Counted from the first letter of the stretch, positions 4,853-60,769 are shown. The stretch: DNA of 64,000 bases from Minisyncoccota bacterium (GCA_018062765.1 JAGORR010000001.1:78638-142637), one strand, 5' to 3'. Notes: generated by a model from the letters alone, not told the origin. Made by a program: numbers and translations.

Positions 4853-4858
4853 ACTAGA

Positions 4859-4893
4859 AGTAGCGTACAGGTGACAGCGTGCAGCGTACAGCA
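4859..4893. repeat. Tandem heptamer array, 5 units: AGTAGCG TACAGGT GACAGCG TGCAGCG TACAGCA. On the gene's sense strand this reads CTGTACG CTGCACG CTGTCAC CTGTACG.
   Basis: Read directly from the sequence. It ends 7 nt upstream of the virB4 C-part ATG. Confidence 0.7.
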
Positions 4894-4920
4894 AAAGCGG
4901 TGCAGGAGTGTTCAGTCTGG

Positions 4921-4941
4921 ACGCTAGCCGCTAGACGCTTC
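4921..4941. repeat. Tandem heptamer array, 3 units: ACGCTAG CCGCTAG ACGCTTC. It is in inverted orientation relative to the 4859-4893 array.
   Basis: Read directly from the sequence. It lies immediately after the stop of the VirB4 N-part ORF. Confidence 0.6.
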
Positions 4942-4944
4942 ATA

Positions 4945-5986: not shown

Positions 5987-6026
5987 CGCTCTATAGTATA
6001 CCGCCCGAGCGCCGAGTTTTGCGTGG

Positions 6027-6635
6027 TTATTGTGACGTACCCTCGTCTATGGGTTCACGATACGGGTCGCGAGCATAATTTTTTGGTACAGGAGCCGGAA
6101 GTGGCGCGATAGACGCAGGTGTTGTGACTTCACGCTCTGTTCGAGGGAGGCGGGGCTCGAAGACTGCTGGAGGTGTCACCGGCTCAGGGCGCGGCGCGGG
6201 AGGAGCAACAGGAGCAGAAGTTATCACAGGTGCAAGCGGCGCGGCTGGAGCGATTGGAGCAGTGGGTGGAGGAGTGGTGCCAAGAGGTGCAGGCACGTCG
6301 GTGAGTGGCGCGCGCGCAGGCTTCCCGGCCTCGCTCCGCATCTTCTCGTGGAGGGGCTTGAATATCGCGTCATTAAGTTCCTTGGCGATGAGAGAGGCTT
6401 TCAGATTAGATATGCCCATCTGCTCCATCTCCTGTATGAGCTGTGCAGGATTGATGAATCCGGACAACATAAGTCCAATGGACTCATCCAAGTCGCCTAC
6501 GACGTCTATGTGTAACTGGTACTTTGCACCTATGCGGCGCACTGCTGGCCCTAATTCACCGCTCGCGAGGTACTCACGAACAGAAAGAGGAAGACCGCGA
6601 TATGCCCGCAAAAGTTCTTCGTGTGGAATCTTCAT
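6027..6635 (-). CDS. Hypothetical protein with a Pro-rich C-terminal half (T4SS-like cluster).
   Basis: ORF with no TM segment. The C-terminal 90 aa are PAPxP-rich. Confidence 0.45.
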   Translation of the reverse strand: MKIPHEELLRAYRGLPLSVREYLASGELGPAVRRIGAKYQLHIDVVGDLDESIGLMLSGFINPAQLIQEMEQMGISNLKASLIAKELNDAIFKPLHEKMRSEAGKPARAPLTDVPAPLGTTPPPTAPIAPAAPLAPVITSAPVAPPAPRPEPVTPPAVFEPRLPRTEREVTTPASIAPLPAPVPKNYARDPYREPIDEGTSQ

Positions 6636-6641
6636 AGAGAG

Positions 6642-8933: not shown

Positions 8934-8938
8934 ATCGG

Positions 8939-10390
8939 TTAGCTTGTCGGGGTGCAGCGCAGGGAGGAGGTGCGCAGTTCCATATATAAGGAGGCTGGCG
9001 TGCCCTCTTCAGCTGCAAGTACCCCTGCTTCAGCAACCTCTGTGACAGAAGGGGTCGCAGGATTTGTCATGAGTGCTTGGAAGTCCTGGGCGACCGTTGC
9101 GACAGCGGTGGGATTCGCGCTCGTACGTGCCTCTAGGATTTCTGTGGTGATTGCCTGTAGCGCAGCGAGCGAGACGCCGACGCGCGCGAGTGCTGCATCC
9201 GCACGTGCTTTTGCGTCCGTTGCGCGCGCCTTCTCCTCATCCGTAGATTCATCGCAAGTAAGCGTTGACGATGCTACCGCCTCTATTTTCTGCCAATCCG
9301 TCTGATACGAAGCAAGGAGGGTTACTTGTCCCTGGATACCGCTTACAAGAAGCTCGTCGACAGATCCCCCGATAGGCGTTGTGGGAGGGGTGACCGGTGT
9401 CGGCGTCCCCGGTCTGTCTATATATCCTGAGCCGCCAGAGGATCGTGAGCCAATAGAAGAAAGTCCCTGAAGCGCCTGGCTTACAAGTTGGCTAACGAGC
9501 GCGTTCACGATCTCGTTTATCTCGTCAGCGACCTGGAGGCGCTGCTGCCCACCTGCCAAGGTCTCATTGAGCTGTTTTTCGATGACGGAACCTGGCGTCT
9601 CGATGGGGGCGTCGGCGCAGAATTCTTCCCCACCCAGATTGACCGCCGGCACAGGCGCGTTAATGCGGCCATCAGCGCCTGTTGTTGTCTGTCGGTCCCT
9701 GCACTCGCCGCGCCAAGACAGAAATCCGTTACCCCATCCGAGCTCCGTTATCCGCTTGTTAAGAGACGCTTCGATGCGGCGATTGAGCTCTTCTTTGGCA
9801 TTTAGATATGCGCCATGTGGGTTGTTTGCGCGATCTCCCGTGAGTGCGAACCACCCGTCCCAGCCGCCTTCGCTAAACCGACCGCGAGTGAACTCAAGAT
9901 CGTTCTCCACAGTGTCGCGAAGGGTGTACAGCTGCTCACGAAGGAACGCGTCGCCATTAGTCGAAAGGTAGTATCCGTACGCAACCGCCTCGACGGTACC
10001 CGAGAGCGGCGTGTCCATCATCTGATCGGCGAGCTGCCCGATGAATTCTGCGGCTACCGCGTCAGCGACCCCGCGCAGGTTCTGATTAAGGTCCTGGACG
10101 AAAGCCGGAGAGCCCTCGAAACCAGAGTTTATCCAATTGACGACGCTCCGCGACATCGACTCAAGGACGGTGTTCGCAAGCTGCCAAGCGACGCCGTCGA
10201 GGACCTGGTCGATATTGAGTTCTGCAGCATTTGTACCGAGAATGGCGTTTGTCGTTGCAAGGACTGCTTTATCGAGAACGAGCTGAACACCAAATTGTGC
10301 TTCAGCGCGTTGCGGTATTGCAAAGAGCGGCAGGATGAGCGCCAGCGTGAGCGCGGATGCGGTAGAACGATACAGGAGTGTACGCATCAT
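8939..10390 (-). CDS. Secreted hypothetical protein (T4SS-like cluster).
   Basis: Signal peptide ending in the AEAQF motif. A 483-aa ORF that overlaps its upstream neighbour by 4 nt. Confidence 0.5.
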   Translation of the reverse strand: MMRTLLYRSTASALTLALILPLFAIPQRAEAQFGVQLVLDKAVLATTNAILGTNAAELNIDQVLDGVAWQLANTVLESMSRSVVNWINSGFEGSPAFVQDLNQNLRGVADAVAAEFIGQLADQMMDTPLSGTVEAVAYGYYLSTNGDAFLREQLYTLRDTVENDLEFTRGRFSEGGWDGWFALTGDRANNPHGAYLNAKEELNRRIEASLNKRITELGWGNGFLSWRGECRDRQTTTGADGRINAPVPAVNLGGEEFCADAPIETPGSVIEKQLNETLAGGQQRLQVADEINEIVNALVSQLVSQALQGLSSIGSRSSGGSGYIDRPGTPTPVTPPTTPIGGSVDELLVSGIQGQVTLLASYQTDWQKIEAVASSTLTCDESTDEEKARATDAKARADAALARVGVSLAALQAITTEILEARTSANPTAVATVAQDFQALMTNPATPSVTEVAEAGVLAAEEGTPASLYMELRTSSLRCTPTS

Positions 10391-11364
10391 AGGCTGGTTG
10401 CAGAAAGGAGTGCGTAGAACCCGGCGCCGGCACCCGTTCGCGCAGCACCCGTTGCGTCGTACGCTTTCTTCACGGCTTTGAAGCCATCGATCATGCTGCG
10501 CGCATCCTTCTCATAATTTCCAAACCCAATCATCGCGCGCACAGGATCATCAGTGAGTGAAGCCATGTCCCCAATCGTCGCTCCGAGCCGTGCGATTGCG
10601 TTCGTAAGTGACTGATGTGCGCTCGTAAGTGCTATTGGCGCAGCGACCCCTCGGAGGCCTTCTGCTATCGCAACGTAATGGTCTCCTATCCGCTTTACCT
10701 GTGCGAGCGCATTCGTATCGCTCTTGAGCACTGCGTCGCTGAAATACGTAAGCTCGCTTTCCGGGAGCGAGAGCGCGTTCTTGGCAAATGCCTGCTCAGC
10801 CCCTGCAAGGTATGAGCTAGGGGTCGCTCCCTCGCTCGCTACGAAGTCGGCAACGACGTATGCGTCATCACGCGTCGCTTCGCGGCGGATTTCGTCAACC
10901 GCGCTTACGACGAACGAGCGCAGTGCCTCAGCGGTGAGTTTCTCCCCTCCCCCGGTAGTGACGTACGTCTCGAAGAACGTGAGCGCGAATTTCTCGGTGA
11001 GGGAACCTGGTGCCGGAGTTACCCCTGGCATGCTTGCGATGATGTCGCTTCCTATAGTGCCTTCGGGCGCCTCAATCGTGGGGCGCACGAGGCCCTGGGC
11101 AAGCGCCTCGCTATCCTTGATGTCGCTCCGTACCGAAGTAGCGTCCTCCGGGTCCATCCCATACAGGAGCTCCTGCCAGTCTGGAACGCCATCGGCATCC
11201 GTATCCTTCGCGGCGTATTCTTTAAGCACCTCCTCGGTCTCCTCTGCAGATAGCGTTGGCGTTGGTGGAGCGCCGTTTTGTATGTAGTAGGCGCCTCCGA
11301 TGAGCACAATCGCGATGAGCGATGCTCCTCCTACTATCCAGTGCGTTCGTGTGACAGCAATCAC
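10387..11364 (-). CDS. Membrane-anchored protein with an EF-hand-like Ca-binding loop. First gene of the T4SS-like operon.
   Basis: N-terminal TM segment (IVGGASLIAIVLIGGAYYI) and a DTDADGVPDWQE loop. Confidence 0.5.
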   Translation of the reverse strand: MIAVTRTHWIVGGASLIAIVLIGGAYYIQNGAPPTPTLSAEETEEVLKEYAAKDTDADGVPDWQELLYGMDPEDATSVRSDIKDSEALAQGLVRPTIEAPEGTIGSDIIASMPGVTPAPGSLTEKFALTFFETYVTTGGGEKLTAEALRSFVVSAVDEIRREATRDDAYVVADFVASEGATPSSYLAGAEQAFAKNALSLPESELTYFSDAVLKSDTNALAQVKRIGDHYVAIAEGLRGVAAPIALTSAHQSLTNAIARLGATIGDMASLTDDPVRAMIGFGNYEKDARSMIDGFKAVKKAYDATGAARTGAGAGFYALLSATSL

Positions 11365-20001: not shown

Positions 20002-20511
20002 TTAGCGCGCGCCGATGAGGAAGCGCTTCGGATCCTCGCACATGTCGGTAAACGCGTGCGCGGCTTCTTTCAGTTTCCCCGACGACGACTTCCCGAACGA
20101 GATCACCTCGGTCTGTACGCCGTTCATATCAAGGAATTCGATAAGTGGTACGAAGTCACCATCGCCAGTCGCGAGGATTATCGTATCGAGCTTGTCTGAG
20201 AGTTTCACCGCGTCTATTGCGATACCCACATCCCAGTCCGCCTTCTTCGCGCCATCGGAGAAGACCTGCAGGTCCTTGACCTTGGTCTCGATGCCGATTT
20301 TGGTGAGCGCGTCGAAGAAGTTTTTCTCGTCCCCTGCCTCGGTCGAGATGACGTATGCGATAGCGCGCACCAAGGTGCGGCCTCCCACGGCCTCTTCGAG
20401 GACCTTGGCGAAGTTGACTCGCGCTTTATAAAGGTTCTTCGCGCTGTGGTACAGGTTCTGCGTATCGATGAAAACGCCGACGCGCTGAGCCGTATGTTTA
20501 ATGACTGCCAT
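20002..20511 (-). CDS. NYN-domain (LabA-like) predicted ribonuclease.
   Basis: VGVFIDTQNLY N-terminus and the TGDGDF motif. Confidence 0.7.
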   Translation of the reverse strand: MAVIKHTAQRVGVFIDTQNLYHSAKNLYKARVNFAKVLEEAVGGRTLVRAIAYVISTEAGDEKNFFDALTKIGIETKVKDLQVFSDGAKKADWDVGIAIDAVKLSDKLDTIILATGDGDFVPLIEFLDMNGVQTEVISFGKSSSGKLKEAAHAFTDMCEDPKRFLIGAR

Positions 20512-20517
20512 ATAAAT

Positions 20518-20545
20518 AGCTATTAGCTTCTAGCTTTGAGCTTCC
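20518..20545. repeat. (AGCTANN)x4 tandem heptamer array: AGCTATT AGCTTCT AGCTTTG AGCTTCC.
   Basis: Four AGCT cores exactly 7 bp apart, 7 nt upstream of the NYN start codon. Confidence 0.7.
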
Positions 20546-20652
20546 AGATATGAAAAAGGAAAACCCAAAAAGTTTGTAAATCGGGAACAGGCCGAGCGGC
20601 CTCCCTCTCCCATGCTACCACTGAAGCACAAAGCCCCGTTTGGGGCCTGTGA

Positions 20653-25480: not shown

Positions 25481-25552
25481 GCTCCGATAGTGAAATGGAT
25501 ATCACATCAGTCTTCGGAACTGACGTTCCAGGTTCGAATCCTGGTCGGAGCA
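25481..25552 (+). tRNA. tRNA-Arg (anticodon TCG), no encoded CCA.
   Basis: Cloverleaf read manually: acceptor GCTCCGA/TCGGAGC, anticodon stem TCAGT/ACTGA, loop CTTCGGA, T-arm CCAGG TTCGAAT CCTGG. Confidence 0.85.
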
Positions 25553-25726
25553 CAGAAAGCAGCAAACCCGAGCTTACGCTTGGGTTTGCTGCTTTCTGGC
25601 TCAAGGCCAGGATTCGAAAGACGGAGTCGGTATACAAGCGAGCGAAGCGAGGCTTGAGACGATGAAAGCTGCCGGGGGTCGCTTTCATGGGTCGCGGAAA
25701 TCCCGCGTAGAGGGATTATCCGTGAC

Positions 25727-26759: not shown

Positions 26760-27371
26760 ATGAAGCGGTACGCATTTATAGATGTCGAAAATACGGCCAC
26801 GACAGCCGAAGATATGCTTGGCTTTGTCGTTGATTGGTCAAAAGTGGCTGATTTCCTCAAGAATGTGAAAAGTTGTACAGAAGTGTTCTACTACACGGCT
26901 ATAGAGACTGGTGATGCCCAGAAGGCGGCAGAGTTCGAGGCGATCGATAAAACTGCCTGCTGCGTTGTTAGGGCGAAACAAAAGATGCTCTATAAGCGTA
27001 AGGACAAGTATCTTTCTTTCACGTGCTCAAAGTGCGGGGAACCCGGCAATAAAAGCATTGACATGGGGTACAACGTCAAAGGTAACTGCGATGTTGAATT
27101 AACGGTGGATGCTCTCGAGCATGGAGAGAAAGATAACGAATTTTACATATTCACGGGCGACGGTGATTTCGAGTACCTAGCTATAAAGCTTATGGAGCGG
27201 GGCGTTAAGGTCGTGTTTGTTTCTCACGCAAAAGTGATTCAGAGGGCTGGTCAGCCCTATGGACGGTATTCAAAAAAGCTTAGAGATCTTGTTGCTGCCA
27301 ACCCGACCCACCTCTCTTTCCAAGAACTAGATAATTGGAAGAAGAAATTTGAGCGCGTAATTGTGCCGTAA
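26760..27371 (+). CDS. NYN-domain protein with an inserted Cys4 zinc ribbon, in a lower-GC context.
   Basis: MKRYAFIDVEN N-terminus, TGDGDFEYLAIKL motif and CSKCG...C insert. AT-richer codon usage than the surrounding genes. Confidence 0.65.
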   Translation: MKRYAFIDVENTATTAEDMLGFVVDWSKVADFLKNVKSCTEVFYYTAIETGDAQKAAEFEAIDKTACCVVRAKQKMLYKRKDKYLSFTCSKCGEPGNKSIDMGYNVKGNCDVELTVDALEHGEKDNEFYIFTGDGDFEYLAIKLMERGVKVVFVSHAKVIQRAGQPYGRYSKKLRDLVAANPTHLSFQELDNWKKKFERVIVP

Positions 27372-28577: not shown

Positions 28578-28973
28578 ATGAATCTCGAGAAGGCCACAAA
28601 GAAGGAAATCGGTGATTATGGTGAAAGGGCCGTCGTCCGAGAGCTCGAGAGGAATGGCTACAGGCTAGTTGGTAGGAATATCGCACGAAAGACAGGAGAA
28701 ATAGACGTGCTAATGCGAAAGAGCGATACCCTCCACTTTATCGAAGTTAAGGCGCTCTCATGTGAGGAGTTGCCGGATCTTGAAGCGGTAAACGATCGCT
28801 ATGACCCCTCTGCAAACCTTCATGAGGCGAAGGTACGAAAAGTCGCCCGGACAGCTGAGTGGATAGTCGCAGAAAAGGAGTGGGAAGGGGATTGGCAGGT
28901 TGATGGCGCCCTAGTATGGCTCCGGCTGCGCGATGGAGTCGCCAAGGTCCTCCATCTGCCGCAAATCGTCTAG
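28578..28973 (+). CDS. yraN: YraN/UPF0102-family predicted endonuclease.
   Basis: GDYGERAVVRELERNGYRLVGRN...GEIDVLMRK...FIEVKA. Confidence 0.7.
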   Translation: MNLEKATKKEIGDYGERAVVRELERNGYRLVGRNIARKTGEIDVLMRKSDTLHFIEVKALSCEELPDLEAVNDRYDPSANLHEAKVRKVARTAEWIVAEKEWEGDWQVDGALVWLRLRDGVAKVLHLPQIV

Positions 28974-29074
28974 CAATGCTAGGATGGCCCATATAGGACG
29001 TTGGCCTATGTGTATGGGCGGTGAGCTAGGGTCATTATGTGCCGGAGTAGCTTGGGTGGGTTAAATCATTTGGT

Positions 29075-29148
29075 CGGGCCGTCGTATACCGGTAGTACGC
29101 TTGGTTTGGGACCAAGATGACCGGGTTCGATTCCCGGCGGCCCGACCA
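29075..29148 (+). tRNA. tRNA-Pro (anticodon TGG) with encoded CCA.
   Basis: Acceptor CGGGCCG/CGGCCCG, D-arm GTAT/GTAC, anticodon stem CTTGG/CCAAG, loop TTTGGGA, T-arm CCGGG TTCGATT CCCGG, then ACCA. Flanked by the inverted repeat 29061-29081 / 29138-29158. Confidence 0.85.
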
Positions 29149-29305
29149 AATGATTTAACGGCTCTCTGGGAGAGAGCCAAGGTCCGGAGGAAAGATGACC
29201 GGGACGACCCCTTACAGGGGCGGTATACCTTTCGGATATTTTGCATCGCAAGCTCGCAAATTATCTCGAAAGGTCTTGCGAACGCTCCAAGCATTCGCGT
29301 TCTCA

Positions 29306-30984: not shown

Positions 30985-32391
30985 ATGACCATCACTTCCA
31001 ACCTCAAAAGGGCGGCAGGCTTTGCGCTCGTCCTCGGGCTCGTGCTCTCCTCTGGTGCCGTCATAGGCGCCAAGGGCGTAGAAGCTGCTTCCTGCTCCTT
31101 TTCCCGAGACCTCTACATAGGCGTCTCGTGGGGAGAGGATGTGCGTTGTCTCCAGGGCACGCTCTCCTCTATGGGCTACTACGTACCCCAGACGGGGACC
31201 TATGGCAATGAGACGGCCATCGCCGTCGCTCGCTGGCAGGCCACCAAGGGTATTAGCCTCGCAAATGGGGTATTTGGCCCTGTCTCCCGTTCCGCTATGG
31301 GTGGCTACTCGGGCACCCCGACCTACCCAGGTACCTCATGGCAGGACAACGACTCAGACGAGGCATACCGAGCCATTTTGGACGCGGTCGCGGCTTACGT
31401 GGACGCCCTGGACGAGTTCCGGGACGCTGAGGACGATAACGACCGCACGGGGGACGCTGAGGACCTTCTTGAGGACGCCCTCGATGAGATACGCGACGCA
31501 CTCCAGTCCTTCATCCGTCATGACTTCGATGACGCGATAGATGCCGCCGAGGAAGCAGAGGACCTCGCAGACGAGGCGATGGACGAAATAGATGGAGATC
31601 GCGATGACGATAACGACAACGACCGCGAAGACGCCGAGGATGCCATCGATGAGGCGTGGGACGCTATCGATGAGGCCGAGGATGAGATAGAGAACGCAGA
31701 CGACCGCGGCGACGATGTCGATGAGGCCGAAGAGCTTCTTGATGACGCCTGGGATGCCATCAATGATGCTGAAGAGGCATACGATGACCGCGATTACGAT
31801 GACGCAGTCGACTACGCGCGGGACGCGGAGGACCTCGCCAAGGACGCAATCGATGCTATCGACGAGGATCGTAACGATTACGACGACGACGATGCAGCCG
31901 ACGCACTCGATGACGCGAACGACGCTATCAATGACGCATGGGACGAAGTTGATGATGCGCGCCGCGATGGCGACGATGTCGACCGCGCCGAGGACCTCCT
32001 TGATGACGCAGAGAACCGTTACGATGATGCGATCGAAGCGTTCGATGATGAGGATTGGGATGATGCGGTCGAGTTTGCGCATGACGCTGAGGACCTCGCG
32101 CATGACGCAGTTGATGCCATCGACGAAGACGACAACGATGGTGATCGGCAAGACGCGATCGACGAAATAAATGATGCGTACGACATAATCCGTGATGCGC
32201 AGGATGAGATTGAGGATGCGGACGACGATGGCGCGGATGTCGACGAGGCGGAGGATCTCTTGCAGGATGCGGTAGACGCATACAACGATGCCGTCGAAGC
32301 GTTTGAAGATCACGACTACGACGATGCTATCGATCTTGCTGAGGAAGCTCAGGATCTTGCCGACGACGCGGTAGACGCAATTGGCTACTAA
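30985..32391 (+). CDS. Exported protein with a PG_binding_1-like domain followed by about 330 aa of hyper-acidic degenerate repeats (D/E/A plus periodic I/L/Y/W).
   Basis: Signal peptide. DLYIGVSWGEDVRCLQGTL...WQATKGISLANGVFGP matches the peptidoglycan-binding fold consensus. The rest is about 45% Asp+Glu in about 50-aa repeat units. Confidence 0.7.
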   Translation: MTITSNLKRAAGFALVLGLVLSSGAVIGAKGVEAASCSFSRDLYIGVSWGEDVRCLQGTLSSMGYYVPQTGTYGNETAIAVARWQATKGISLANGVFGPVSRSAMGGYSGTPTYPGTSWQDNDSDEAYRAILDAVAAYVDALDEFRDAEDDNDRTGDAEDLLEDALDEIRDALQSFIRHDFDDAIDAAEEAEDLADEAMDEIDGDRDDDNDNDREDAEDAIDEAWDAIDEAEDEIENADDRGDDVDEAEELLDDAWDAINDAEEAYDDRDYDDAVDYARDAEDLAKDAIDAIDEDRNDYDDDDAADALDDANDAINDAWDEVDDARRDGDDVDRAEDLLDDAENRYDDAIEAFDDEDWDDAVEFAHDAEDLAHDAVDAIDEDDNDGDRQDAIDEINDAYDIIRDAQDEIEDADDDGADVDEAEDLLQDAVDAYNDAVEAFEDHDYDDAIDLAEEAQDLADDAVDAIGY

Positions 32392-32404
32392 TTAGTTTCT
32401 TCTA

Positions 32405-32447
32405 GAGAAAATCCGCAGCCGTCGAGGCTGCGGATTTTCTCTTTATG
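32405..32447 (+). terminator. Rho-independent terminator between the two acidic-repeat genes.
   Basis: 16-bp stem GAGAAAATCCGCAGCC/GGCTGCGGATTTTCTC followed by a T-run. Confidence 0.6.
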
Positions 32448-32512
32448 CGCACATCATTAGCTCATAAGGTGCGTGCTATCGTTTACGCATTACTCAAAAA
32501 GCATCGTTTCGT

Positions 32513-33679
32513 ATGAAAACGTCACGCCTGTCACGCTTATCCGCCGCTGCACTTCTCGCACTCTCGCTTGCCGTCGCGAGTTTCGCACCGCTCGCTGCAT
32601 CCGCAGCAGCGTGCTCACTTACTCGCGACCTGTATCTCGGTGATACTGGCGAGGATGTGCGCTGCTTGCAGCGGTACTTGAACGGCGCGGGCTTTACCGT
32701 ATCGTCGAGCGGTGTTGGTTCTCCCGGGTCGGAGACGAATCAGTACCAGTTGAAGACAGTCGATGCGGTGAAGAAGTGGCAGACGGCGAACGGAATTAGT
32801 CCAGCGACCGGAGGATTCGGTCCGTTGTCGCGCGCGAAGTATGCGGCGCTTGCGGGCGGCAGCGTGACTATGCCGACACCTTCGACACCTTCCACTGGCG
32901 CCGTGACCGCAGCAAGCGTATCCGCTTTGACTGCGATAAACGAGGCGCGTGAAGCGTACGAAGATGCGCGGGATGCCGTAGCGGATGATGGAAGCGATGA
33001 CGCCGATGACTATCTCGATACCGCGCGAGAGAATTTACTCAACGCGCTCTACGCATACATCGCGGGAAACTATCCATCAGCTGAGTCGCGTGCTGATACT
33101 TCGACCAGTGCTTCCAAAAACGCGCTCGATGAAGTTGGTGGCGACGAAGATGAAGATGAGGACGAAGATCATGACACCGATGAGGAGGGGGCAGACGACG
33201 CGATAGAGGAAGCTAAGCAGGCGATACGTGACGCCGATGACGCGATTGAAGAGGCGCAGGATGAGGGTGACGACACTGAGGACGCAGAAGATTTGATTGA
33301 GGATGCACGAGAGAAACTCGACGAAGCAGAGGAAGCATTCGACGATGAGGAGTGGGATGACGCGATAGAAGCTGCGGAAGAAGCGAAAGACCTTGCGGAT
33401 GAATCCTATGAGGAGGCAGGAGGAGAGGATGCTGACGCGGAGGAAGCGGCGGACGATGCAATCGATGCTGCAGTGCACGCTATTAACGTCGCGTGGAACG
33501 CTATAGAGGAAGCGGATGACGACGGTGATGATACGGAAGAGGCAGAGGACATCGTAAACGAAGCGGAGGCACGGCTCGATGACGCCCGGGATGAGTTCGA
33601 GGACGAGGATTGGGATGAAGCAATCGAGTCCGCAGAGGAGGCCGAGGAGCTTGCAGAAGAGGCTGAAAACGCGCTCTAG
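32513..33679 (+). CDS. Paralogous exported PG_binding_1-like protein with a Glu/Asp-rich acidic repeat region.
   Basis: Signal peptide. DLYLGDTGEDVRCLQRYL...WQTANGISPATGGFGP, then DDAIEEA.../WDDAIEAAEEA repeats. Confidence 0.7.
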   Translation: MKTSRLSRLSAAALLALSLAVASFAPLAASAAACSLTRDLYLGDTGEDVRCLQRYLNGAGFTVSSSGVGSPGSETNQYQLKTVDAVKKWQTANGISPATGGFGPLSRAKYAALAGGSVTMPTPSTPSTGAVTAASVSALTAINEAREAYEDARDAVADDGSDDADDYLDTARENLLNALYAYIAGNYPSAESRADTSTSASKNALDEVGGDEDEDEDEDHDTDEEGADDAIEEAKQAIRDADDAIEEAQDEGDDTEDAEDLIEDAREKLDEAEEAFDDEEWDDAIEAAEEAKDLADESYEEAGGEDADAEEAADDAIDAAVHAINVAWNAIEEADDDGDDTEEAEDIVNEAEARLDDARDEFEDEDWDEAIESAEEAEELAEEAENAL

Positions 33680-39097: not shown

Positions 39098-39697
39098 TTA
39101 AGAGAAAACCTTGTCGACGATGCCGTACTTCTTCGACTCGTCCGCCGTCATGAAGAAGTCGCGCTCGACATCCTTCTCAATCTTCGCAAGAGGTTGCCCG
39201 GTGGCTTTAGAGAGAATCTTATTAAGGCGGTCACGGGTCGCAAGGATGTGACGCGCCGTAAGCTCGATGTCGGTCGCCTGACCCTCTGCGCCGCCTGAAG
39301 GCTGGTGAATCATCACCTCTGCGTTTGGGAGCGCGAAGCGTTTACCCTTCTCGCCGCCGGCGAGGAGCACTGCGGCGCCTGAAGCTGCGAGTCCGACCGC
39401 CACCGTCGAAACCTGCGGCTTCACATGGTTCATGGTGTCGAGCATCGCCAAGGTTGCCGTTACCGAGCCACCTGGAGAATTGATGTAAAGCGAAATATCC
39501 TTCTTCGGGTCTTCAGCCTCAAGGAATAGGAGCTGCGCAATGACGAGGTTCGCGACGTCGTCATGTATGGGGCCGCCGAGGAATACGATGCGCTCCCGGA
39601 GGAGGCGCGAGTAGATGTCGTAGGCGCGCTCGCCGAACTGCGACTTCTCGATAACCATCGGGACGAGCATGGATGCCTGCGGGGTTATGTGCTTCAT
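39098..39697 (-). CDS. clpP: ATP-dependent Clp protease proteolytic subunit.
   Basis: [18 protein letters not shown] with the catalytic Ser, His and Asp residues. 199 aa. Confidence 0.9.
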
Positions 39698-39895
39698 AGT
39701 GAACGCAGCCTATCAAAAAAGGGCGCTCGCATCAATTCTTGCGGGAGCACGCGTTCCGTCATTCCAGCGATGACGGCCGCTCTCTCTCATCGGCGTGACT
39801 CGCAAAACGGCCTCCAAACTGTTTTGCTCGTGCCAAGCCACGCCTCTTCCGAGAGTCTCCCTCAGAATCGATGCTCGCTAAGAAGCAGAGTCGCG

Positions 39896-40051
39896 CTAGA
39901 AAGTCTGGCTTTCTGCTGCAGGGGTCGGAAGAGGAGCCTTACGCTTTTCGATTCGTTCGCCCCAGACGTAGAAGGCACCGATGACGACGATGGCGAGGAT
40001 GAGAAAGATGGAGATGAGTGCACCGTACGACGCGTTCTTCTTTGGGGGCAT
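39896..40051 (-). CDS. Small single-TM membrane protein of 51 aa, hypothetical.
   Basis: MPPKKNASYGALISIFLILAIVVIGAFYVW... The upstream part of the ORF-track frame translates the heptamer repeat and was trimmed. Confidence 0.35.
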   Translation of the reverse strand: MPPKKNASYGALISIFLILAIVVIGAFYVWGERIEKRKAPLPTPAAESQTF

Positions 40052-40056
40052 ATGAA

Positions 40057-40091
40057 TACAGGGTACAGCGTACAGGTTACAGCGTACAGTG
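40057..40091. repeat. Five perfect-phase tandem heptamers: TACAGGG TACAGCG TACAGGT TACAGCG TACAGTG.
   Basis: Read directly. On the sense strand it ends 5 nt before the ATG of the small membrane protein. Confidence 0.75.
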
Positions 40092-40126
40092 GAAAACGAA
40101 CAAACGCCGCGATGCGACGTTTGTTC
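40091..40126 (-). terminator. Rho-independent terminator for ppa (GAACAAACG / CGTTTGTTC followed by GTTTTCC on the minus strand).
   Basis: 9-bp stem with an 11-nt loop and a U-run. Confidence 0.5.
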
Positions 40127-40131
40127 CTGAC

Positions 40132-40159
40132 AGCTAAAAGCTAGAAGCTGTAAGCTATT
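40132..40159. repeat. (AGCTANN)x4 tandem heptamer array: AGCTAAA AGCTAGA AGCTGTA AGCTATT.
   Basis: AGCT cores at 40132, 40139, 40146 and 40153. The last core overlaps the ppa stop codon. Confidence 0.7.
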
Positions 40160-40673
40160 TTGACGTGTCGTACATCTCGCGCGAGCGCAGGAATGCGGCT
40201 TCTGCGTCACTCTTGCCGCCGAACCCGTTTACCTCAACCACTTTGTTCTGAAGTTTCTTATAGGTGGAGTAGAAGTGCTCGATTTCCTTAAGCGTGTGCT
40301 TATTGATGTCGCCAAGGTCTTTCATTTCCGCAAAGCGCGGATCGCCCACAGGAACCGCAATGACCTTATCGTCTTTATCACCACTGTCGACCATATTGAG
40401 GAGCGCGATAGGTCGCGCACGTACCATGATGCCAGGGAGAAGGGGATGGGTCGTAAGTAGGATGACGTCGAGGGCGTCACCATCGTCCCAGAGGGTCTGC
40501 GGCACGAAGCCGTAGTCAAACGGGAAGTCCTGCGCCGTGTGCGCAACGCGATCGAGCGCGATGATGCCCGTCTCTTTGTCTATCTCATACTTATTCTTCG
40601 AGCCCTTGTTAATCTCGACGATGACGGTCATCTCGTCTTTGGTTCCCGGGTCAATGTCGTGAAGCAGGTTCAT
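40155..40673 (-). CDS. ppa: Inorganic pyrophosphatase (family I).
   Basis: HDIDPGTKDEMTVIVEINKGSKNKYEIDKETG. Start trimmed to MNLLHDID. The ORF-track extension translates the upstream repeat. Confidence 0.85.
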   Translation of the reverse strand: MNLLHDIDPGTKDEMTVIVEINKGSKNKYEIDKETGIIALDRVAHTAQDFPFDYGFVPQTLWDDGDALDVILLTTHPLLPGIMVRARPIALLNMVDSGDKDDKVIAVPVGDPRFAEMKDLGDINKHTLKEIEHFYSTYKKLQNKVVEVNGFGGKSDAEAAFLRSREMYDTSK

Positions 40674-40679
40674 ATAAGA

Positions 40680-40714
40680 GATAGCGTATAGCTGACAGCG
40701 TGCGGCGTACAGGG
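40680..40714. repeat. Five tandem heptamers: GATAGCG TATAGCT GACAGCG TGCGGCG TACAGGG. On the sense strand these read CCCTGTA CGCCGCA CGCTGTC AGCTATA CGCTATC.
   Basis: This fills almost the whole 43-nt nusA-ppa spacer. It is 33/36 identical to the 4859-4893 array. Confidence 0.75.
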
Positions 40715-40716
40715 GA

Positions 40717-42141
40717 TTACTCGTCGCGGCTTTCTGCGACGTCAGAGGCCGACTCGTTTCCTTCGTCTGCGACGGTGGTCTCCTCCTCAGCAGCAAGAGT
40801 GGTGTGCTCCTTAGGTGCCTCGAGTGACTCCTCTGCGTCCGCGCTTTCAGCGCCGATGTCGGTCGCGTCTACAGGAGTTGCGGTCTCAACCATCGCTTCC
40901 GTCATCTCCTCTTTTCCGGCGTCGGCTGCCTCGTCGATAGAAGGCGCAGGAGCCGCTTCGGGTGCTACATTGGCTGCCTCAGCGCCGGCATCTGCGACTT
41001 CCGTACCGCCCGACGAGATGATGTCGATGTTCCACCCAGTGAGCTTTGCGGCAAGGCGTACGTTCTGCCCGCCGCGACCGATGGCAAGGGACTGCTGATC
41101 GTCGGAAACCGATACCTTCGCGCGCTTCTCTTCCTCGTTAAGCTCGATTTCAAGGACGGATGCGGGAGAGAGTGCTTCTTTGATGAACGCGGACTGGTCC
41201 TCGCTCCACTCGATGATGTCGATGCGCTCGCCGCCGAGTGCCGCCATGACGGTTGAAACGCGCACGCCGCGCTGACCGACGAGGGATCCGACAGGGTCGA
41301 CATGAGGGTCGACAGATGCGACTGCAATCTTCGTGCGGCTTCCAGGCTCGCGTGCGATGCTCTTCACTTCGATGGCGCCCGAAGCGAGTTCTGGTACTTC
41401 CATTTCAAACAACTGCACCAAAAAGCGTGGGTGGCTGCGCGAGAGGCGGAGGAATACGCCGCGGAAGCCCTCATCTACCGCGTAAAGATACGCGCGGATG
41501 CGCTCCCCGGGACGATACCGCTCACCAGGAATCTGCTCCTCATACGGGATGATGCCGGTTGCACGGCCGAGGTCGACGAATATCGCGCCGCGCTCCATGC
41601 GCTGCACGATTCCGGAAATTATCTCGCCCTTCTTGTGGCCGAACTCCTCAAGTATGGACATCTTCTCCGCTTCGCGGATTTTCTGGATAACGACCTGCTT
41701 TGCAGTTTGTGCGGCGATGCGGCCGAAATCGTCCTGGGGCTCAAGAGGGAAGATAATCTCCTCGCCCAAGGTTGCGGTGCGGCGGATACGCTTCGCGTCA
41801 TCAAGAAGCATGTGCTTCTCGGCGTTGTAGCGGGGGAGCTCGCCCTCAGGGACGACCTCCTCGCGCTCACGACCAAAATGGTGCTCAGGCTCGGGAGTAA
41901 ACTCCTCGCCTTCCTCGGGGAAACGCACCATCGTCTCATCGACGACAGACTTCACCTGCTCGAAGGAGACGGTGCCGGTGTCCATATCAACCTTGGCACG
42001 CACGACCTGGTCGCGCTTTCCGTACTCTTTCTTATATGCGGTGGCCATCGCGGTTTCGATAGCCTCAATCATCGTTTCCTTCGTGATACCGCGGTCTTCG
42101 AACTCTCCGAGCACTGAGTGAATAGTTTTGAGATCCAACAT
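40717..42141 (-). CDS. nusA: Transcription termination/antitermination factor NusA with an acidic C-terminal tail.
   Basis: NusA N-terminal, S1 and two KH domains. No rimP upstream. Confidence 0.9.
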   Translation of the reverse strand: MLDLKTIHSVLGEFEDRGITKETMIEAIETAMATAYKKEYGKRDQVVRAKVDMDTGTVSFEQVKSVVDETMVRFPEEGEEFTPEPEHHFGREREEVVPEGELPRYNAEKHMLLDDAKRIRRTATLGEEIIFPLEPQDDFGRIAAQTAKQVVIQKIREAEKMSILEEFGHKKGEIISGIVQRMERGAIFVDLGRATGIIPYEEQIPGERYRPGERIRAYLYAVDEGFRGVFLRLSRSHPRFLVQLFEMEVPELASGAIEVKSIAREPGSRTKIAVASVDPHVDPVGSLVGQRGVRVSTVMAALGGERIDIIEWSEDQSAFIKEALSPASVLEIELNEEEKRAKVSVSDDQQSLAIGRGGQNVRLAAKLTGWNIDIISSGGTEVADAGAEAANVAPEAAPAPSIDEAADAGKEEMTEAMVETATPVDATDIGAESADAEESLEAPKEHTTLAAEEETTVADEGNESASDVAESRDE

Positions 42142-42353: not shown

Positions 42354-43331
42354 TTAGGCGAATGCCCAGTCACCATTGATCGTGGTCGCTTCTGCAGCGA
42401 ACACCAAAGGCGGGGGCGGAACCCACTCGACGCCAGGAGCCAGATAGATGTGGCCGACGTTCGCCCCGTTCTCGATCGTCAACGACTTGGACGAGATTAC
42501 GAGGTCGTGTCCGACCATCGTGATTTCGCTGTTGTCGAGGCCGAGCGAGGTCAGGACAAGCGAGTCGTGGACGTTCGCATCGGAGAGCACGGTAGTGCCG
42601 TTGCCGAACCGGGCGTCGAAGACGTCCGAGCCCGAGCCGCCGTGCATGGTGTCGTTGCCGCCACCGCGCAGGACGTCGCGTCCGTCGCCGCCAACGAGGA
42701 AGTCGCCCACCCCGTCTTCGACACCGTTCGACTGGAAACCACGGACGTCGTCGTTGCCGTCGCCGCCGTGGACCGTGTCGGCTCCGTTGCCGCCGAACAG
42801 TGTGTCGTTGCCGTCCTCGCCGTAGAGCGAGTCGTCACCGTTGTTGCCGTTCAGCGTGTCGCTGTCAGCACCGCCCCAGGCGCGATCGCGCGCCGACGAA
42901 CCGCTGACCCAGTCGTTGCCGGCGCCGCCGAAAAACTGGTCGAGGCCGGTACCGCCGAACATCTTGTCGTGGCCGTCGCCGCCGATGAACATGTTGTCCC
43001 CGGTCGAGCCGCGAGCGTAGAGGTAGTCGTCGCCTTGTACGCCGAGCAGCCAGTTGTCGCCGCTCCCGTTGACCCTGACCTCGTCGTTGCCTTCGCCGCC
43101 GACCAGCTGGTCGTTCCCGGAGGCAGAGATCAGCTGGTCGTTCCCGGAGTGGCCCTCTAGGTGGTCGTCGCCCTGGGTGCCGATGAGGGTGTCGTTGCCG
43201 GCACCTGCAAGGATGGCGAGGCCGTGATCCGTAAACGCGCGGAAGTCCATGCGATTCGGGTCGTGGTCGCCCCACCTGGTGGTGGCGTCAGTGGCGAAGT
43301 AGGTCGGCATCACGGGTTCTGCACGGTTCAT
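42354..43331 (-). CDS. RTX-type (hemolysin-type Ca-binding GGxGxD nonapeptide repeat) protein.
   Basis: More than 15 tandem GxxGxDxL/F-type nonapeptides (GGEGNDEV, GGDGHDKMFGG, GGAGNDWVSG...). No N-terminal signal peptide. Non-repeat C-terminal region of about 90 aa. Confidence 0.7.
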   Translation of the reverse strand: MNRAEPVMPTYFATDATTRWGDHDPNRMDFRAFTDHGLAILAGAGNDTLIGTQGDDHLEGHSGNDQLISASGNDQLVGGEGNDEVRVNGSGDNWLLGVQGDDYLYARGSTGDNMFIGGDGHDKMFGGTGLDQFFGGAGNDWVSGSSARDRAWGGADSDTLNGNNGDDSLYGEDGNDTLFGGNGADTVHGGDGNDDVRGFQSNGVEDGVGDFLVGGDGRDVLRGGGNDTMHGGSGSDVFDARFGNGTTVLSDANVHDSLVLTSLGLDNSEITMVGHDLVISSKSLTIENGANVGHIYLAPGVEWVPPPPLVFAAEATTINGDWAFA

Positions 43332-48391: not shown

Positions 48392-49058
48392 TATGGAAAG
48401 AGCAGCGAGCAGCGAAAAGTGTACAGCGACTAGGAATATGACCACCGCTTCTTCCGCGGCTATACGCTTTCGGGCCGGCTTTACGCTTATCGAGACGTTG
48501 ATGGTGATTGGTCTTACCGCCGTCGTGGGACTCGCGATTTCGAACATGATTTTGTTCACCTATCGCACGAACACCTACCTCTACCAGCAGAGCGCAGCGA
48601 CTGATAACGCGCGACGCGGCCTCGACCCGGCGCTGCAGAACCTACGCGAGGCGACCTACGCTGCTGATGGCTCGTATCCGCTGTCGACGGCAGCTACTTC
48701 GTCCGTAACTTTCTTCAGCGACGTCGATGTCGACGGATCGGTTGAGAAAATTCGTTACTATCTCTCAGGGACGACGTTCTATCGCACGATTACGAATCCG
48801 GCAGGTTCGCCCCCGTCATACGTGGGGCAGGCAGCCGCGACGTCGACTATCGCTTCCTACGTGAAGAATTTCTCCGCAAACGCGAGCGTGTTCCGCTATT
48901 ACGACAGCACCGGAACGGAGCTTGCAGCGCCCATTGATGTTGCTGAGGTGAGGAGTATCAGTATCTCGGTAATGGTCGACGTGGACCCAAACCGCACACC
49001 AACGACCTATTCGCTCACGGGCTCGGCGACATTCCGCAACCTGCGCGATACTGATTGA
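48372..49058 (+). CDS. Type IV prepilin (canonical G|FTLIE).
   Basis: RFRAG|FTLIETLMVIGLTAVVGLAIS. The heptamer array at 48401-48428 lies inside the annotated 5' end. The real start is probably the ATG at 48438. Confidence 0.6.
   Translation: MTRFSIDMERAASSEKCTATRNMTTASSAAIRFRAGFTLIETLMVIGLTAVVGLAISNMILFTYRTNTYLYQQSAATDNARRGLDPALQNLREATYAADGSYPLSTAATSSVTFFSDVDVDGSVEKIRYYLSGTTFYRTITNPAGSPPSYVGQAAATSTIASYVKNFSANASVFRYYDSTGTELAAPIDVAEVRSISISVMVDVDPNRTPTTYSLTGSATFRNLRDTD
48401..48428. repeat. Tandem heptamers AGCAGCG AGCAGCG AAAAGTG TACAGCG.
   Basis: Same TACAGCG-family unit as the 4859 and 40057 arrays. It ends 9 nt before the ATG at 48438. Confidence 0.6.
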
Positions 49059-49059
49059 T

Positions 49060-50589
49060 ATGGAAAGGAAAGCGTTTAGCGTAGAGCGTAGAGCATGTAG
49101 GAAAGACGGACCGGCTTCTTCTATACGCTATACGCTATCAGCTAGACACTCTCTGCAAGGCGGGTATCTCATGCTCCTGTCGCTCGTCTTTGGCGGGATA
49201 TTCCTAGGACTCCTCGGAGCGCTAACGAGCTACGTTCTTCTTGAGAATCGGCTTCAGGACCAGAAGGACGCGCAAGGTCGTGCATTTGCGATAGCTGAAG
49301 CAGGGCTCGAGTACTATCGATGGTTCTTGGCGCACTATCCGGGAAACGTCACGAATGGAGTTTCAGGCGGCCCCACAACGTTTACGCTTCCGTACTATGA
49401 CCCGGAGGGCGAGCAGCTCGGAAACTACACGCTGACGCTGAATCAGAATTCCGCCTGTGGCGCCGTCTCCTCCGTAGATATCGAATCGGAGGGCGCTACG
49501 CTCGATATGCCACAGGTGACACAGACGGTATCGGCGCGCTACGCGCAGCCTTCGGTTGGGCGTTATTCCTACGTATTGAATGACAGCGTATGGGCCGGCG
49601 CGGACCGCATCATCCTGGGGCCCTATCACTCCAATGGTGGTATCCGTATGGACGGGACCGCAAACTCATCTGTGTCGAGCTCGGTTTCGACTTGGAACTG
49701 CACGAGTAGCTACGGCTGTAGCCCAACGCAGTCGGCTGCGCCAGGCGTTGTTGGCACAGGCCCCAATCAGAGTCTTTGGACGTATCCGGTGCCGCAGGTG
49801 GACTTTGCGGCCATAGCTGCGGATTTTGCCTCGCTCAAATCGACCGCGCAGGCGCAGGGTCTCTACTATCCTCGCTACAGTAATACGAACAATCCGAATT
49901 CCTCTGCGTACTGGCACGGATACCACCTCACATTTAACGCAAACGACACCGTTACGGTTCGGCGCGTGACCTCAACAACGGAACTCGAGGTCGAGCCAGT
50001 GAATCCGGCGGAGACCCTCGATACAGACCGCGCGCTGATAGCGAACGAAACCATGTATGAAACGAGGACGATACCCGCTTCATGCGGACTCATCTACGTG
50101 GAGGATCACGTATGGATAGATGGCACCATCCCGTCTGAAGTGACGGTCGTTGCCGCTAATACAGCGTCGGGGCTCTCACCAAACGCATACCTGCGCAACA
50201 ACATCGTGTATGAAAATACAGACGGTAGTTCTGGCCTCACACTTATTGCGGAGAACAACGTGCTGATTGCACCTAACGCGCCTGCTGCAATGACCCTGAA
50301 CGGCATCTTCATCGCACAGAACGGTGCGTTTGGTCGGAACCTCTACTACAACAATTCCCGGACAGCATGCCACTCAACCTATGAACCGAAAACATCTCTC
50401 ACCATCCTTGGCACCACGGTCTCGAACAAGCGCACCGGAACCAAGTGGACCGGCGTTTCCTGCTCGGGCGGATACGCGGGCTTCGGTACCCGTATCGACT
50501 CCTACGACGAGCAGATGGCCATAGATCCACCACCCTTCACTCCTATCGTTTCGACCGATTACGAGATTATGGATTGGCGTGAACGGTAG
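49060..50589 (+). CDS. Pseudopilin/minor-pilin-like protein (N-terminal hydrophobic helix, no Glu5).
   Basis: SLQGGYLMLLSLVFGGIFLGLLGALTSYVLLE. 509 aa. Two heptamer arrays (49075-49102 and 49121-49148) lie in its annotated 5' region. The ATG at 49171 is an alternative start. Confidence 0.45.
   Translation: MERKAFSVERRACRKDGPASSIRYTLSARHSLQGGYLMLLSLVFGGIFLGLLGALTSYVLLENRLQDQKDAQGRAFAIAEAGLEYYRWFLAHYPGNVTNGVSGGPTTFTLPYYDPEGEQLGNYTLTLNQNSACGAVSSVDIESEGATLDMPQVTQTVSARYAQPSVGRYSYVLNDSVWAGADRIILGPYHSNGGIRMDGTANSSVSSSVSTWNCTSSYGCSPTQSAAPGVVGTGPNQSLWTYPVPQVDFAAIAADFASLKSTAQAQGLYYPRYSNTNNPNSSAYWHGYHLTFNANDTVTVRRVTSTTELEVEPVNPAETLDTDRALIANETMYETRTIPASCGLIYVEDHVWIDGTIPSEVTVVAANTASGLSPNAYLRNNIVYENTDGSSGLTLIAENNVLIAPNAPAAMTLNGIFIAQNGAFGRNLYYNNSRTACHSTYEPKTSLTILGTTVSNKRTGTKWTGVSCSGGYAGFGTRIDSYDEQMAIDPPPFTPIVSTDYEIMDWRER
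49075..49102. repeat. Tandem heptamers TTTAGCG TAGAGCG TAGAGCA TGTAGGA.
   Basis: Read directly. TANAGCG-type units. Confidence 0.6.
49121..49148. repeat. Tandem heptamers CTATACG CTATACG CTATCAG CTAGACA. Inverted relative to the 49075-49102 array.
   Basis: Same units as the sense strand of the 40680-40714 array. Confidence 0.65.
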
Positions 50590-60335: not shown

Positions 60336-60743
60336 ATGGCGACCATCAATCAGCTTTCGAAGAAGCACCGCAAGGACAAGACTCGTAAGTCTAAGGTCCT
60401 TGCTCTTGGGCGTGGTTTCAATCACCTCGAGAACCGTCCCACCTACTACTCGGCCCCCTTCAAGCGCGGTGTCTGCACGAAGGTAACGACGAAGACTCCT
60501 CGCAAGCCTAACTCGGCTATTCGTAAGATTGCCCGTGTCCGTCTCTCTAACGGTATGGAGGTTACGGCGTATATCCCAGGCGAGGGACACAACCTCCAGG
60601 AGCACTCCGTCGTCCTGCTTCGTGGTGGTCGCGTGAAGGACATCGGTGTCCAGTACACTATCGTTCGCGGCAAGCTCGACACTGCAGGCCTTGAGAAGCG
60701 ACGCCGTGGACGATCGCGCTACGGAGCGAAGAAACCAAAATAG
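60336..60743 (+). CDS. rpsL: 30S ribosomal protein S12.
   Basis: [10 protein letters not shown]...[16 protein letters not shown]...[10 protein letters not shown]. Start trimmed to the ATG at 60336. Confidence 0.95.
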
Positions 60744-60769
60744 CTATCAGCTACTAGCTACGAGCTTTA
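60742..60769. repeat. (AGCTANN)x4 tandem heptamer array: AGCTATC AGCTACT AGCTACG AGCTTTA.
   Basis: AGCT cores at 60742, 60749, 60756 and 60763. The first core overlaps the rpsL TAG stop. It ends 12 nt before the rpsG ATG. Confidence 0.7.

Follow-up and report, generated by a model that had tools for sequence, protein, structure and literature searches.

Intergenic repeats with a seven-nucleotide unit are a recognised class of bacterial sequence without an established function. Direct TAACTGA repeats are found in marine Beggiatoaceae, some Cyanobacteria and Bacteroidetes. In Beggiatoaceae, 169 sets of two to six copies have been described, most of which point towards a start codon and have their end about 1 nt upstream of it; these repeats stand in for the ribosome-binding site, occur in ribosomal-protein operons, and have had S1, Csp or CsrA proposed as readers, CspB being noted to bind heptamer repeats with one protein per heptamer (MacGregor 2015, PMC4679880). 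Heterogeneous G-rich heptamer repeats are known from Xanthomonas, as (GGGANTN)n, and from Nostoc, as GGGGAYT (Rehm et al. 2015, PMC4692102). Geobacter metallireducens carries fourfold GGGACCG at 49 loci and fivefold MTYCTGA, the latter annotated as 'class 3 global regulator sites' (Aklujkar et al. 2009, PMC2700814). Here we describe heptad arrays in a 64,000-nt stretch (the window) of the genome, about 0.64 Mb in size, of a Minisyncoccota bacterium (GCA_018062765.1 JAGORR010000001.1:78638-142637), a Patescibacterium of the Paceibacteria/Kaiserbacteria type, focusing on the 103-nt spacer between ppa and the gene for a 51-amino-acid membrane protein. The present arrays are a lineage-specific addition to the class, and the spacer is very probably an intrinsic terminator bracketed by two arrays of this lineage-specific member.

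The genes around the spacer all lie on the minus strand: nusA (40717-42141), ppa (40155-40673; its product is a Pfam Pyrophosphatase), the 51-amino-acid open reading frame (39896-40051), clpP (39098-39697) and the gene for RNase Y. Read 5' to 3' on that strand, the spacer runs from a stop-side array through a hairpin and GUUUUCC to a start-side array, CAT and the ATG. An earlier reading made from the sequence alone (the sequence-only reading) had proposed an AGCT array, a terminator hairpin, a TACAGNN array and the ATG, and all four elements were recovered where it had placed them. The stop-side, or forward, array (40123-40157, minus strand) reads TAGCTTA CAGCTTC TAGCTTT TAGCTGT CAGGAAC, with a score of 20/20 for its best four units. 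The ppa stop codon TAG (40155-40157) forms the first three bases of the first unit and is thus embedded in the array, as proposed. On the plus strand, AGCT occurs four times at period 7 (40132-40156), in agreement with the proposed (AGCTANN)4, but the fifth unit, CAGGAAC, which overlaps the foot of the terminator stem, had been missed. The hairpin (GAACAAACGUCGC-AUC-GCGGCGUUUGUUC; 40098-40126, minus strand; approximately -20 kcal/mol) lies 29 nt after the ppa stop and is the sole element retained in the centroid structure; its stem comprises 13 bp including one G-U pair rather than the 9 bp given before. The short U-tract that follows, GUUUUCC (40091-40097, minus strand), contains four U only, and a fixed-rule terminator scan, which needs five T in eight, made no call.

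A single A separates GUUUUCC from the start-side, or reverse, array (40055-40089, minus strand), which reads CTGTACG CTGTAAC CTGTACG CTGTACC CTGTATT, the reverse complement of CAGNNTA units, and belongs to the dispersed family D7. On the plus strand (40057-40089) it appears as TACAGGG TACAGCG TACAGGT TACAGCG TACAG(TG), in which the TACAG core occurs five times without a mismatch and with a period of exactly 7. The last CTGTA core is followed by TTCAT and then by the ATG of the 51-amino-acid gene (40049-40051), three bases (CAT) past the last heptad; the five heptamers, the 5-nt gap and the start codon were therefore as the sequence-only reading had them. The open reading frame is evidently a real, conserved gene, because its product aligns from the first residues with small membrane proteins encoded after ppa in four relatives, with ten invariant columns. 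Rfam covariance models returned only four tRNAs in the window and nothing meaningful at 39850-40750, even at E values up to 10. The terminator stem (40126-40098, minus strand) also contains GGAAC-N16-CGTT, which has the shape of an extracytoplasmic-function (ECF) sigma promoter, probably by coincidence.

Put in one frame, the 'AGCT' and 'TACAG' arrays proved to be one heptad, YAGCKNN, in opposite orientations; the two arrays had been listed as separate elements, and both are present, but they carry the same unit on opposite strands. Ten such arrays, with four or five units each at an exact 7-nt period, gave 48 units in which position 1 was Y in 40, position 2 A in 47, position 3 G in all 48, position 4 C in 35 and position 5 K in 41. 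Units within an array are non-identical, differing at two or three positions, and only 1 of the 73 departures from the local majority fell in the AG columns (P = 6e-10), which rules out microsatellites decaying at random. The chance expectation in 64 kb is 6e-8 for five 5-mers at period 7 and 0.004 for four 4-mers. Period 7 was enriched in the window relative to periods 5, 8, 10 and 11, Tandem Repeats Finder returned eleven period-7 rows, and scoring for YAGCK heptads yielded 14 clusters compared with 0.37 in shuffles. All ten arrays are non-coding, where non-coding sequence makes up only about 15% of the window (P = 5e-9). Their orientation follows the genes: arrays right after stop codons run forward on the sense strand, and those right before start codons run in reverse complement, reading CUR-N4 there.

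The census of arrays covered the 64-kb window plus 10 kb beyond the window start, and these 10 kb contained no further heptad arrays. Three spacers hold two arrays, always forward and then reverse: ppa/51-amino-acid gene, TraC-like gene/virB4, and the spacer between the 206- and 472-amino-acid genes of a pilin cluster (49064-49151). The virB4 spacer, for which the same stop-side and start-side layout had been claimed, indeed has it: AAGCGTC TAGCGGC TAGCGTC CAGACTG follows the stop of the TraC-like gene (4913-4940, minus strand; heptad scan), and CTGTACG CTGCACG CTGTCAC CTGTACG CTACTTC (4857-4891, minus strand; heptad scan and copy comparison) precedes the ATG (4852) of the virB4/TraG-like gene. 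In the pilin cluster, AAGCGTT TAGCGTA GAGCGTA GAGCATG TAGGAAA (49070-49104, plus strand) is followed by CTATACG CTATACG CTATCAG CTAGACA (49121-49148, plus strand) before the 472-amino-acid gene. Single arrays occupy four more spacers. A reverse array, CTGTACG CCGCACG CTGTCAG CTATACG CTATCTC (40678-40712, minus strand), lies in the 43-nt nusA-ppa spacer and is followed by TTAT and the ATG; a forward array, TAGCTAT CAGCTAC TAGCTAC GAGCTTT (60741-60768, plus strand; heptad scan), begins with the S12 stop TAG and ends 13 nt before the S7 ATG; and a second forward array, CAGCGAG CAGCGAA AAGTGTA CAGCGAC TAGGAAT and then ATG (48403-48437, plus strand; D16), lies between two pilin-like genes in the spacer at 48392-48437. 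The fourth is a reverse-oriented AGCT array (20515-20545, minus strand; heptad scan), with the end of its last AGCT core 8 nt upstream of the ATG (20511) of an NYN-domain gene. Four reverse arrays, those of the 51-amino-acid gene, ppa, virB4 and the NYN gene, stop 3-5 nt short of the ATG.

Several arrays are dispersed copies of one another, which supports the proposal of a modular, reusable element, as does the recurrence of the layout at the virB4 spacer and at 49064-49151. Within D7, the virB4 and ppa start-side arrays have 83% identity over 42 nt, and the match extends to the order of their variant units and to the ATG; over this 42-nt stretch, the start-side array of the 51-amino-acid gene has 69% identity to that of virB4. 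Three AGCT-type arrays (D18, 87%; I4, 82%; I6, 81%) all begin AAATAGCT, which supplies the Lys-stop in ppa and S12; copies of the ppa stop-side array lie at 20514-20547 and 60736-60767 (I4 and I6). The arrays are, to judge by these identities, short dispersed copies rather than a hypervariable microsatellite. REP, BIME and REPIN sequences are likewise short, dispersed extragenic elements, often just past stop codons and commonly in inverted pairs able to form long hairpins, and the present copies (D7, D16, D18, I4 and I6) are similarly dispersed, extragenic and often in inverted pairs; however, the REP unit is an imperfect palindrome with a GTAG end, whereas the present arrays are direct heptads without an internal palindrome.

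Two observations concern the surroundings of these arrays. In the two pilin-cluster spacers (48393-48437 and 49060-49170), which are paralogous, an ATG, in TGATATGGAAAG, stands directly after the upstream stop and in frame with the annotated start downstream; reading from it crosses the heptad arrays without a stop, and these arrays could in principle encode N-terminal extensions. Genes for NYN-domain (PIN-like RNase) proteins occur at 20002-20511 (minus strand), the one preceded by the AGCT heptad array, and at 26760-27371 (plus strand).

Among the described heptamer repeats, the TAACTGA set is closest. It shares with the window arrays the 7-nt period, a copy number within two to six, the almost exclusively intergenic location, the orientation towards start codons, the end a few nucleotides away from them, the lack of a canonical ribosome-binding site at the genes concerned, the occurrence in ribosomal-protein operons and the patchy phylogenetic distribution (PMC4679880). 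Its sense form, CUGAUAA, has CUR-N4 in common with the CUGUACG and CUAUACG of the window. The heptamer itself differs, being perfect there whereas the window units have two or three free positions, and a single inverted pair was reported there whereas a forward and reverse pair around a terminator is the typical module here. Units of the types CTGTANN, CTATACG and AGCTNNN share only CTR with TAACTGA, and the window arrays are of the same kind but of a different family. The Xanthomonas and Nostoc repeats resemble them in being intergenic heptads with fixed and free positions and mostly about four units, in including some convergent inverted pairs able to form stem-loops, and in differing between close relatives (PMC4692102); they form G-quadruplexes, which YAGCKNN cannot, and vary in length among strains, which was not seen here. 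The Geobacter elements are also scattered sets of four or five tandem heptads, class 3 containing CTGA and opposite-strand pairs; some of their copies are intragenic, no relation to stops or starts was described, and they are predictions only (PMC2700814).

The polarity of the arrays was then considered together with the initiation signals of the host. Of 44 starts in the window, 11 have a TAnnnT ending exactly 6 nt upstream of the ATG and 2 have one ending 7 nt upstream, and a minority of genes carry GGAGG; these upstream sequences indicate that leaderless mRNAs are widespread in this Patescibacterium. Starts with a -10-like box (often gcTAnnnT) and no Shine-Dalgarno sequence include those at 5986, 14157, 18161, 22058, 24733, 35863, 51149, 53756, 55474 and 58282. 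A GGAG-type motif, or TAnnnT at 6-7 nt, was found at 22 of the 37 genes not preceded by an array but at none of the 7 that are (P = 0.004), and the start-side arrays occupy the place where a Shine-Dalgarno sequence or a leaderless -10 box would sit in other genes.

Arrays of the same kind occur in other bacteria and in phages. Scans of viral contigs and of representative genomes for TAGCT-N3-AGCT-N3-AGCT-N3-AGCT each gave at least 120 matches, for which taxon frequencies are indicative only. In one viral contig (L064, IMGVR_UViG_3300021255_003533; 3950-10515), nearly every spacer of a siphovirus-like late operon of tail genes consists of (TAGCTNT)n, a GC hairpin and (AGCTAAN)n; this module of approximately 100 nt, whose arms form a paired stem of about 35 bp (-60 kcal/mol, z -6.9), also occurs in L013, L024, L028, L032, L083 and L109, all of these contigs having 58-61% G+C, and no cultured-phage relative of L064 was found to carry it. 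Among the matches listed for representative genomes, about a third were from Acidobacteriota, and others from Cyanobacteria, Omnitrophota, Planctomycetota and one Patescibacterium. The acidobacterial arrays (L185-L263; for example L187 6314-6410, L241 3233-3345, and L263 2213 and 7723) lie right after stops and right before ATGs, including those of rplF and infA in ribosomal-protein operon spacers. Among the matches listed, the variable triplets were purine-rich before starts in 55 arrays versus 9 and pyrimidine-rich after stops in 105 versus 39, and AGCT-type start-side arrays ended mostly 0-7 nt before the ATG. CAGCGTA-type heptads were also found in six JGI contigs, one of which, Planctomycetota-like (L309, JGI Ga0315312_1002190; 4779-4842), has the full module, TAGCGTA GAGCGTT TAGCGTT CAGCGTT and then CTGTACG CTGCACG CTGTCAC and ATG, arranged forward and then reverse as in the window, immediately upstream of an alpha-glucan phosphorylase gene. 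An all-frame stop-codon cassette would fit many acidobacterial and phage arrays, but it was rejected here because it does not fit the CTGTA arrays of the window.

Closer to the host, the picture is different. Five assemblies, which come from at least four samples, have the spacer base for base in common; with no more than one single-nucleotide polymorphism per 15 kb between them, they represent one strain, and the check for variation in unit number thus found none, although within one strain. In six relatives with 78-85% identity in ppa, the orthologous spacers contain no heptads, and there is almost no period-7 signal anywhere in 6-20 kb of sequence; the module is absent, and only a terminator hairpin is kept. 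After ppa in five of them (L006, L008, L304, L305 and L306), unrelated hairpins followed by T-runs stand in the same place as the window terminator, and the relatives often have a -10 box before the small gene (TATAAT-N9-ATG) and before ppa (TACACT-N9-ATG). The sequence-only reading had inferred a regulatory module and had named an invariant unit number and absence from orthologous loci as the findings that would count against it. The element is composite and re-used, as it held, but both of these findings were made, and a regulatory function is at most an inference.

We tentatively favour an mRNA-level role for the heptad arrays, with the start-side array as a platform read in a 7-nt register, while recognising that this choice may well be wrong. 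It is favoured because of the polarity of the arrays, the fact that they adjoin start codons even within operons, the lack of any further initiation signal at the genes concerned and the published precedent. According to this proposal, the start-side array would stand in for a Shine-Dalgarno sequence or a leaderless -10 box, acting as an unstructured, single-stranded stretch of mRNA. The reader would advance in steps of 7 nt and would be either the 30S subunit or a protein of the OB-fold type, such as S1 or a cold-shock-domain protein, with one fold for each heptad. Such reading would set the initiation of the 51-amino-acid gene on transcripts that pass the terminator. The stop-side array, as the complement, may pair with the start-side array, lengthening the terminator stem and masking the platform; as the stop-side array begins at the ppa stop codon, it would be opened by a ribosome that terminates there. 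The arms of the three two-array spacers are complementary beyond shuffles (duplexes of -20.5, -24.7 and -34.3 kcal/mol; z -3.2, -2.4 and -4.7), and single arrays are unstructured as RNA, no better than shuffles (nusA-ppa, -3.4 kcal/mol, z +1.4).

A number of observations weigh against this role. Genes for S1 or cold-shock proteins are absent from the 64-kb window, which is a part of the genome of about 0.64 Mb. On the sense strand, half of the arrays show YAG instead of CUR, and a single RNA reader cannot therefore explain both orientations. Many acidobacterial start-side units are AGGAGCT or GAGAGCT and thus Shine-Dalgarno-like, whereas the start-side heptad of the window, CUGUACG, is not, and one mechanism may not cover all cases. 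With the terminator hairpin left out of account, complete spacers of the window fold scarcely better than shuffles, and the predicted pairing leaves the last two heptads and the AUG unpaired. Pairing specific to RNA, for which the G-U advantage on the sense strand was taken as the sign, was also rejected: the sense strand was slightly favoured in all three window modules, but among 12 paired AGCT modules elsewhere the sense fold was better in 4 and the antisense fold in 8 (P = 0.38), so that symmetry at the DNA level fits as well as RNA pairing. Finally, the arrays are dispensable for the locus, because a terminator and a -10 box suffice the relatives for expression of these genes.

A broader form of the proposal would treat YAGC/CUR heptad arrays (TAGCTNN, CAGCGTA and TAACTGA) as one cross-phylum class of cis-element, ranging over Patescibacteria, Acidobacteriota, Planctomycetota, Beggiatoaceae and phages. 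With a fixed polarity, such arrays would replace the Shine-Dalgarno sequence and be read by a universal factor (S1, a cold-shock-domain protein or the 30S subunit) as a third mode of initiation control, the stop-side array being a built-in antagonist. This generalisation is speculative, and we would be surprised if it held in full.

The most serious alternative to an mRNA-level role, though in itself unlikely, is that the arrays are repeats free of function, generated by replication slippage in 7-bp steps, by copy-and-paste or by both, and persisting only where they are harmless; a compact genome leaves them the short spacers for this, for which reason they would inevitably abut stops and starts. 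Heptameric repeats are over-represented in many bacteria, and polymerase slippage has been proposed as their source (PMC4692102). The absence of arrays from six relatives that keep the terminator alone agrees with such an origin, as does the shared order of variant units in D7, D18 and I4, which indicates copying rather than convergent selection. The nusA-ppa spacer, at 43 nt, is moreover longer than in four of five relatives (15-31 nt), as insertion predicts, that of the fifth (L007) being 79 nt. What inert repeats do not account for is the confinement of substitutions to the same columns in all arrays, the fixed polarity relative to genes, the near-identical heptads in unrelated phyla and the lack of any other initiation signal at the array-preceded genes; slippage would also not have led us to expect a unit number without variation among the five assemblies.

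Less probable is that the arrays are double-stranded DNA operators on which a small oligomerising protein of the ribbon-helix-helix type, one dimer per heptad, would repress or insulate a promoter or terminator. The operators of the omega repressor of pSM19035, contiguous 7-bp units in direct and inverted orientation, and those of ParG, 4-bp boxes with fixed spacers in the same two orientations, are each bound by one ribbon-helix-helix dimer per unit, and the window arrays resemble them in being contiguous short units in both orientations. A period of exactly 7, a conserved core of 4-5 bp, in many cases the palindrome AGCT, the presence of both direct and inverted units within one spacer, and strand-symmetric modules without a sense-RNA advantage would all be expected of such operators, and the Geobacter heptanucleotide sets have been annotated as predicted global-regulator sites (PMC2700814). 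The omega and ParG sites, however, lie at two or three promoters of one plasmid, beside the regulator gene, whereas here about ten sites are spread over 64 kb, many of them inside operons (S12-S7, and the phage late operons), where no promoter is expected. No gene for a ribbon-helix-helix or other small DNA-binding protein was found beside the arrays or among the window proteins scanned. The strong polarity of single arrays relative to translation starts is a further difficulty, and very similar heptads across phyla would be unusual for a private regulator.

A slim likelihood attaches to a reading of the arrays as tandem -10-like elements, in which the last TAnnnT would be a near-leaderless promoter of the 51-amino-acid gene, ppa or virB4 and the upstream ones slippage duplicates that trap or phase RNA polymerase. 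Read as TANNCTG, the start-side heptads do form TAnnnT hexamers on the non-template strand, the variable positions of CTGTANN coinciding with its positions 3-4, and TACGCT or TACCCT lies 8-9 nt before the ATG of all three genes, at the place where the relatives have TACACT-N9-ATG (ppa) and TATAAT-N9-ATG (small gene). We retained this idea only as a rival because the spacing of 8-9 nt is off the sharp peak of the host's leaderless promoters at 6 nt (11 genes) or 7 nt (2). Moreover, a promoter scan found nothing in the region and no canonical sigma-70 promoter in the spacer; stop-side, AGCT, acidobacterial and phage arrays do not fit TAnnnT; and the S12-S7 and pilin spacers are operon-internal.

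Antitermination of the HutP kind, in which an RNA-binding oligomer on five YAG triplets would block the hairpin and let transcription continue into the small gene and clpP, is very unlikely. The HutP site in the Bacillus subtilis hut leader consists of NAG triplets with 4-nt spacers, in two sets of three at a single locus, and the stop-side array offers a comparable UAG-N4-CAG-N4-UAG-N4-UAG-N4-CAG at period 7 on the mRNA right before the hairpin, the last triplet running into the stem foot; AG is invariant in the heptads and their first base is Y, compatible with the NAG requirement. Most forward arrays are nonetheless not beside a terminator (S12-S7, 48403 and 49070), half of the arrays are oriented with no AG on the mRNA, and arrays elsewhere adjoin start codons. 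No HutP-like gene was present among the window proteins scanned, which come from 64 kb of the genome of about 0.64 Mb, and to our knowledge the HutP family is confined to Bacillota. Phase variation, with gain or loss of heptads switching the 51-amino-acid membrane protein, is almost certainly wrong: a tandem short repeat does stand right upstream of the start codon, and 7-bp repeats are reported to drive phase variation of the Haemophilus hmw genes (PMC8262952), but non-identical units suppress slippage, no base of the spacer differs among the five assemblies and their four or more samples, and the same arrays precede housekeeping genes such as ppa and S7.

Two further ideas about the heptad were rejected. 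The palindromes AGCT and GTAC are unlikely to mark restriction sites, as neither is avoided in the window (observed/expected 1.04 and 0.98). GATC, as a separate matter, is under-represented window-wide (0.47) with other 4-bp palindromes near 1, which suggests a GATC-specific restriction system. The trinucleotides CTG and CTA are start sites of DnaG, but a role as primase sites was discarded, since four of five reverse arrays are on head-on genes with CTR on the leading-strand template, as placed by GC skew and by dnaA and dnaN just left of the window. There, rnpA, yidC, dnaA and dnaN (L315 11021-21020) lie 2-5 kb before the window start, indicating that the window adjoins the replication origin; judged by GC skew, replication runs head-on into both the type IV secretion system-like operon (428-11364) and the nusA-ppa-clpP genes.

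Other repeats in the window are of a different nature. Two adjacent genes at 31450-33660, encoding 468 and 388 amino acids, consist of degenerate 21-nt (7-amino-acid) acidic repeats, of which DDAxDAID is an example and one family has 25 copies, and a 325-amino-acid protein (42354-43331, minus strand) contains RTX calcium-binding nonapeptide repeats, which appear as 27/54-nt tandem repeats at 42750-42985. An inverted repeat with 41-nt arms, 80% complementarity and a 4-nt gap lies by a tRNA gene (25533-25618), and another with 25-nt arms, 96% complementarity and a 50-nt gap (29060-29159) surrounds the tRNA at 29075-29145. A UPF0102/NERD nuclease-like gene is present at 28578-28973.

The over-representation of heptameric intergenic repeats in bacteria has been on record for nearly twenty years, with no tested function. 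Non-coding DNA is in short supply in the reduced genome of a Patescibacterium, so that some ten arrays within 64 kb are hard to dismiss. To the earlier descriptions the present arrays add a clear polarity rule, forward after stops and reverse before starts, and they are tied to genes that have neither of the two usual initiation signals of the host. The same rule is seen in the AGCT arrays of Acidobacteriota and of phage late operons, and it matches the TAACTGA case. If the arrays are inert, they would be a warning that conserved columns and fixed polarity alone do not prove regulation. The polarity rule and the recurrence across phyla make the function of heptamer arrays experimentally approachable.

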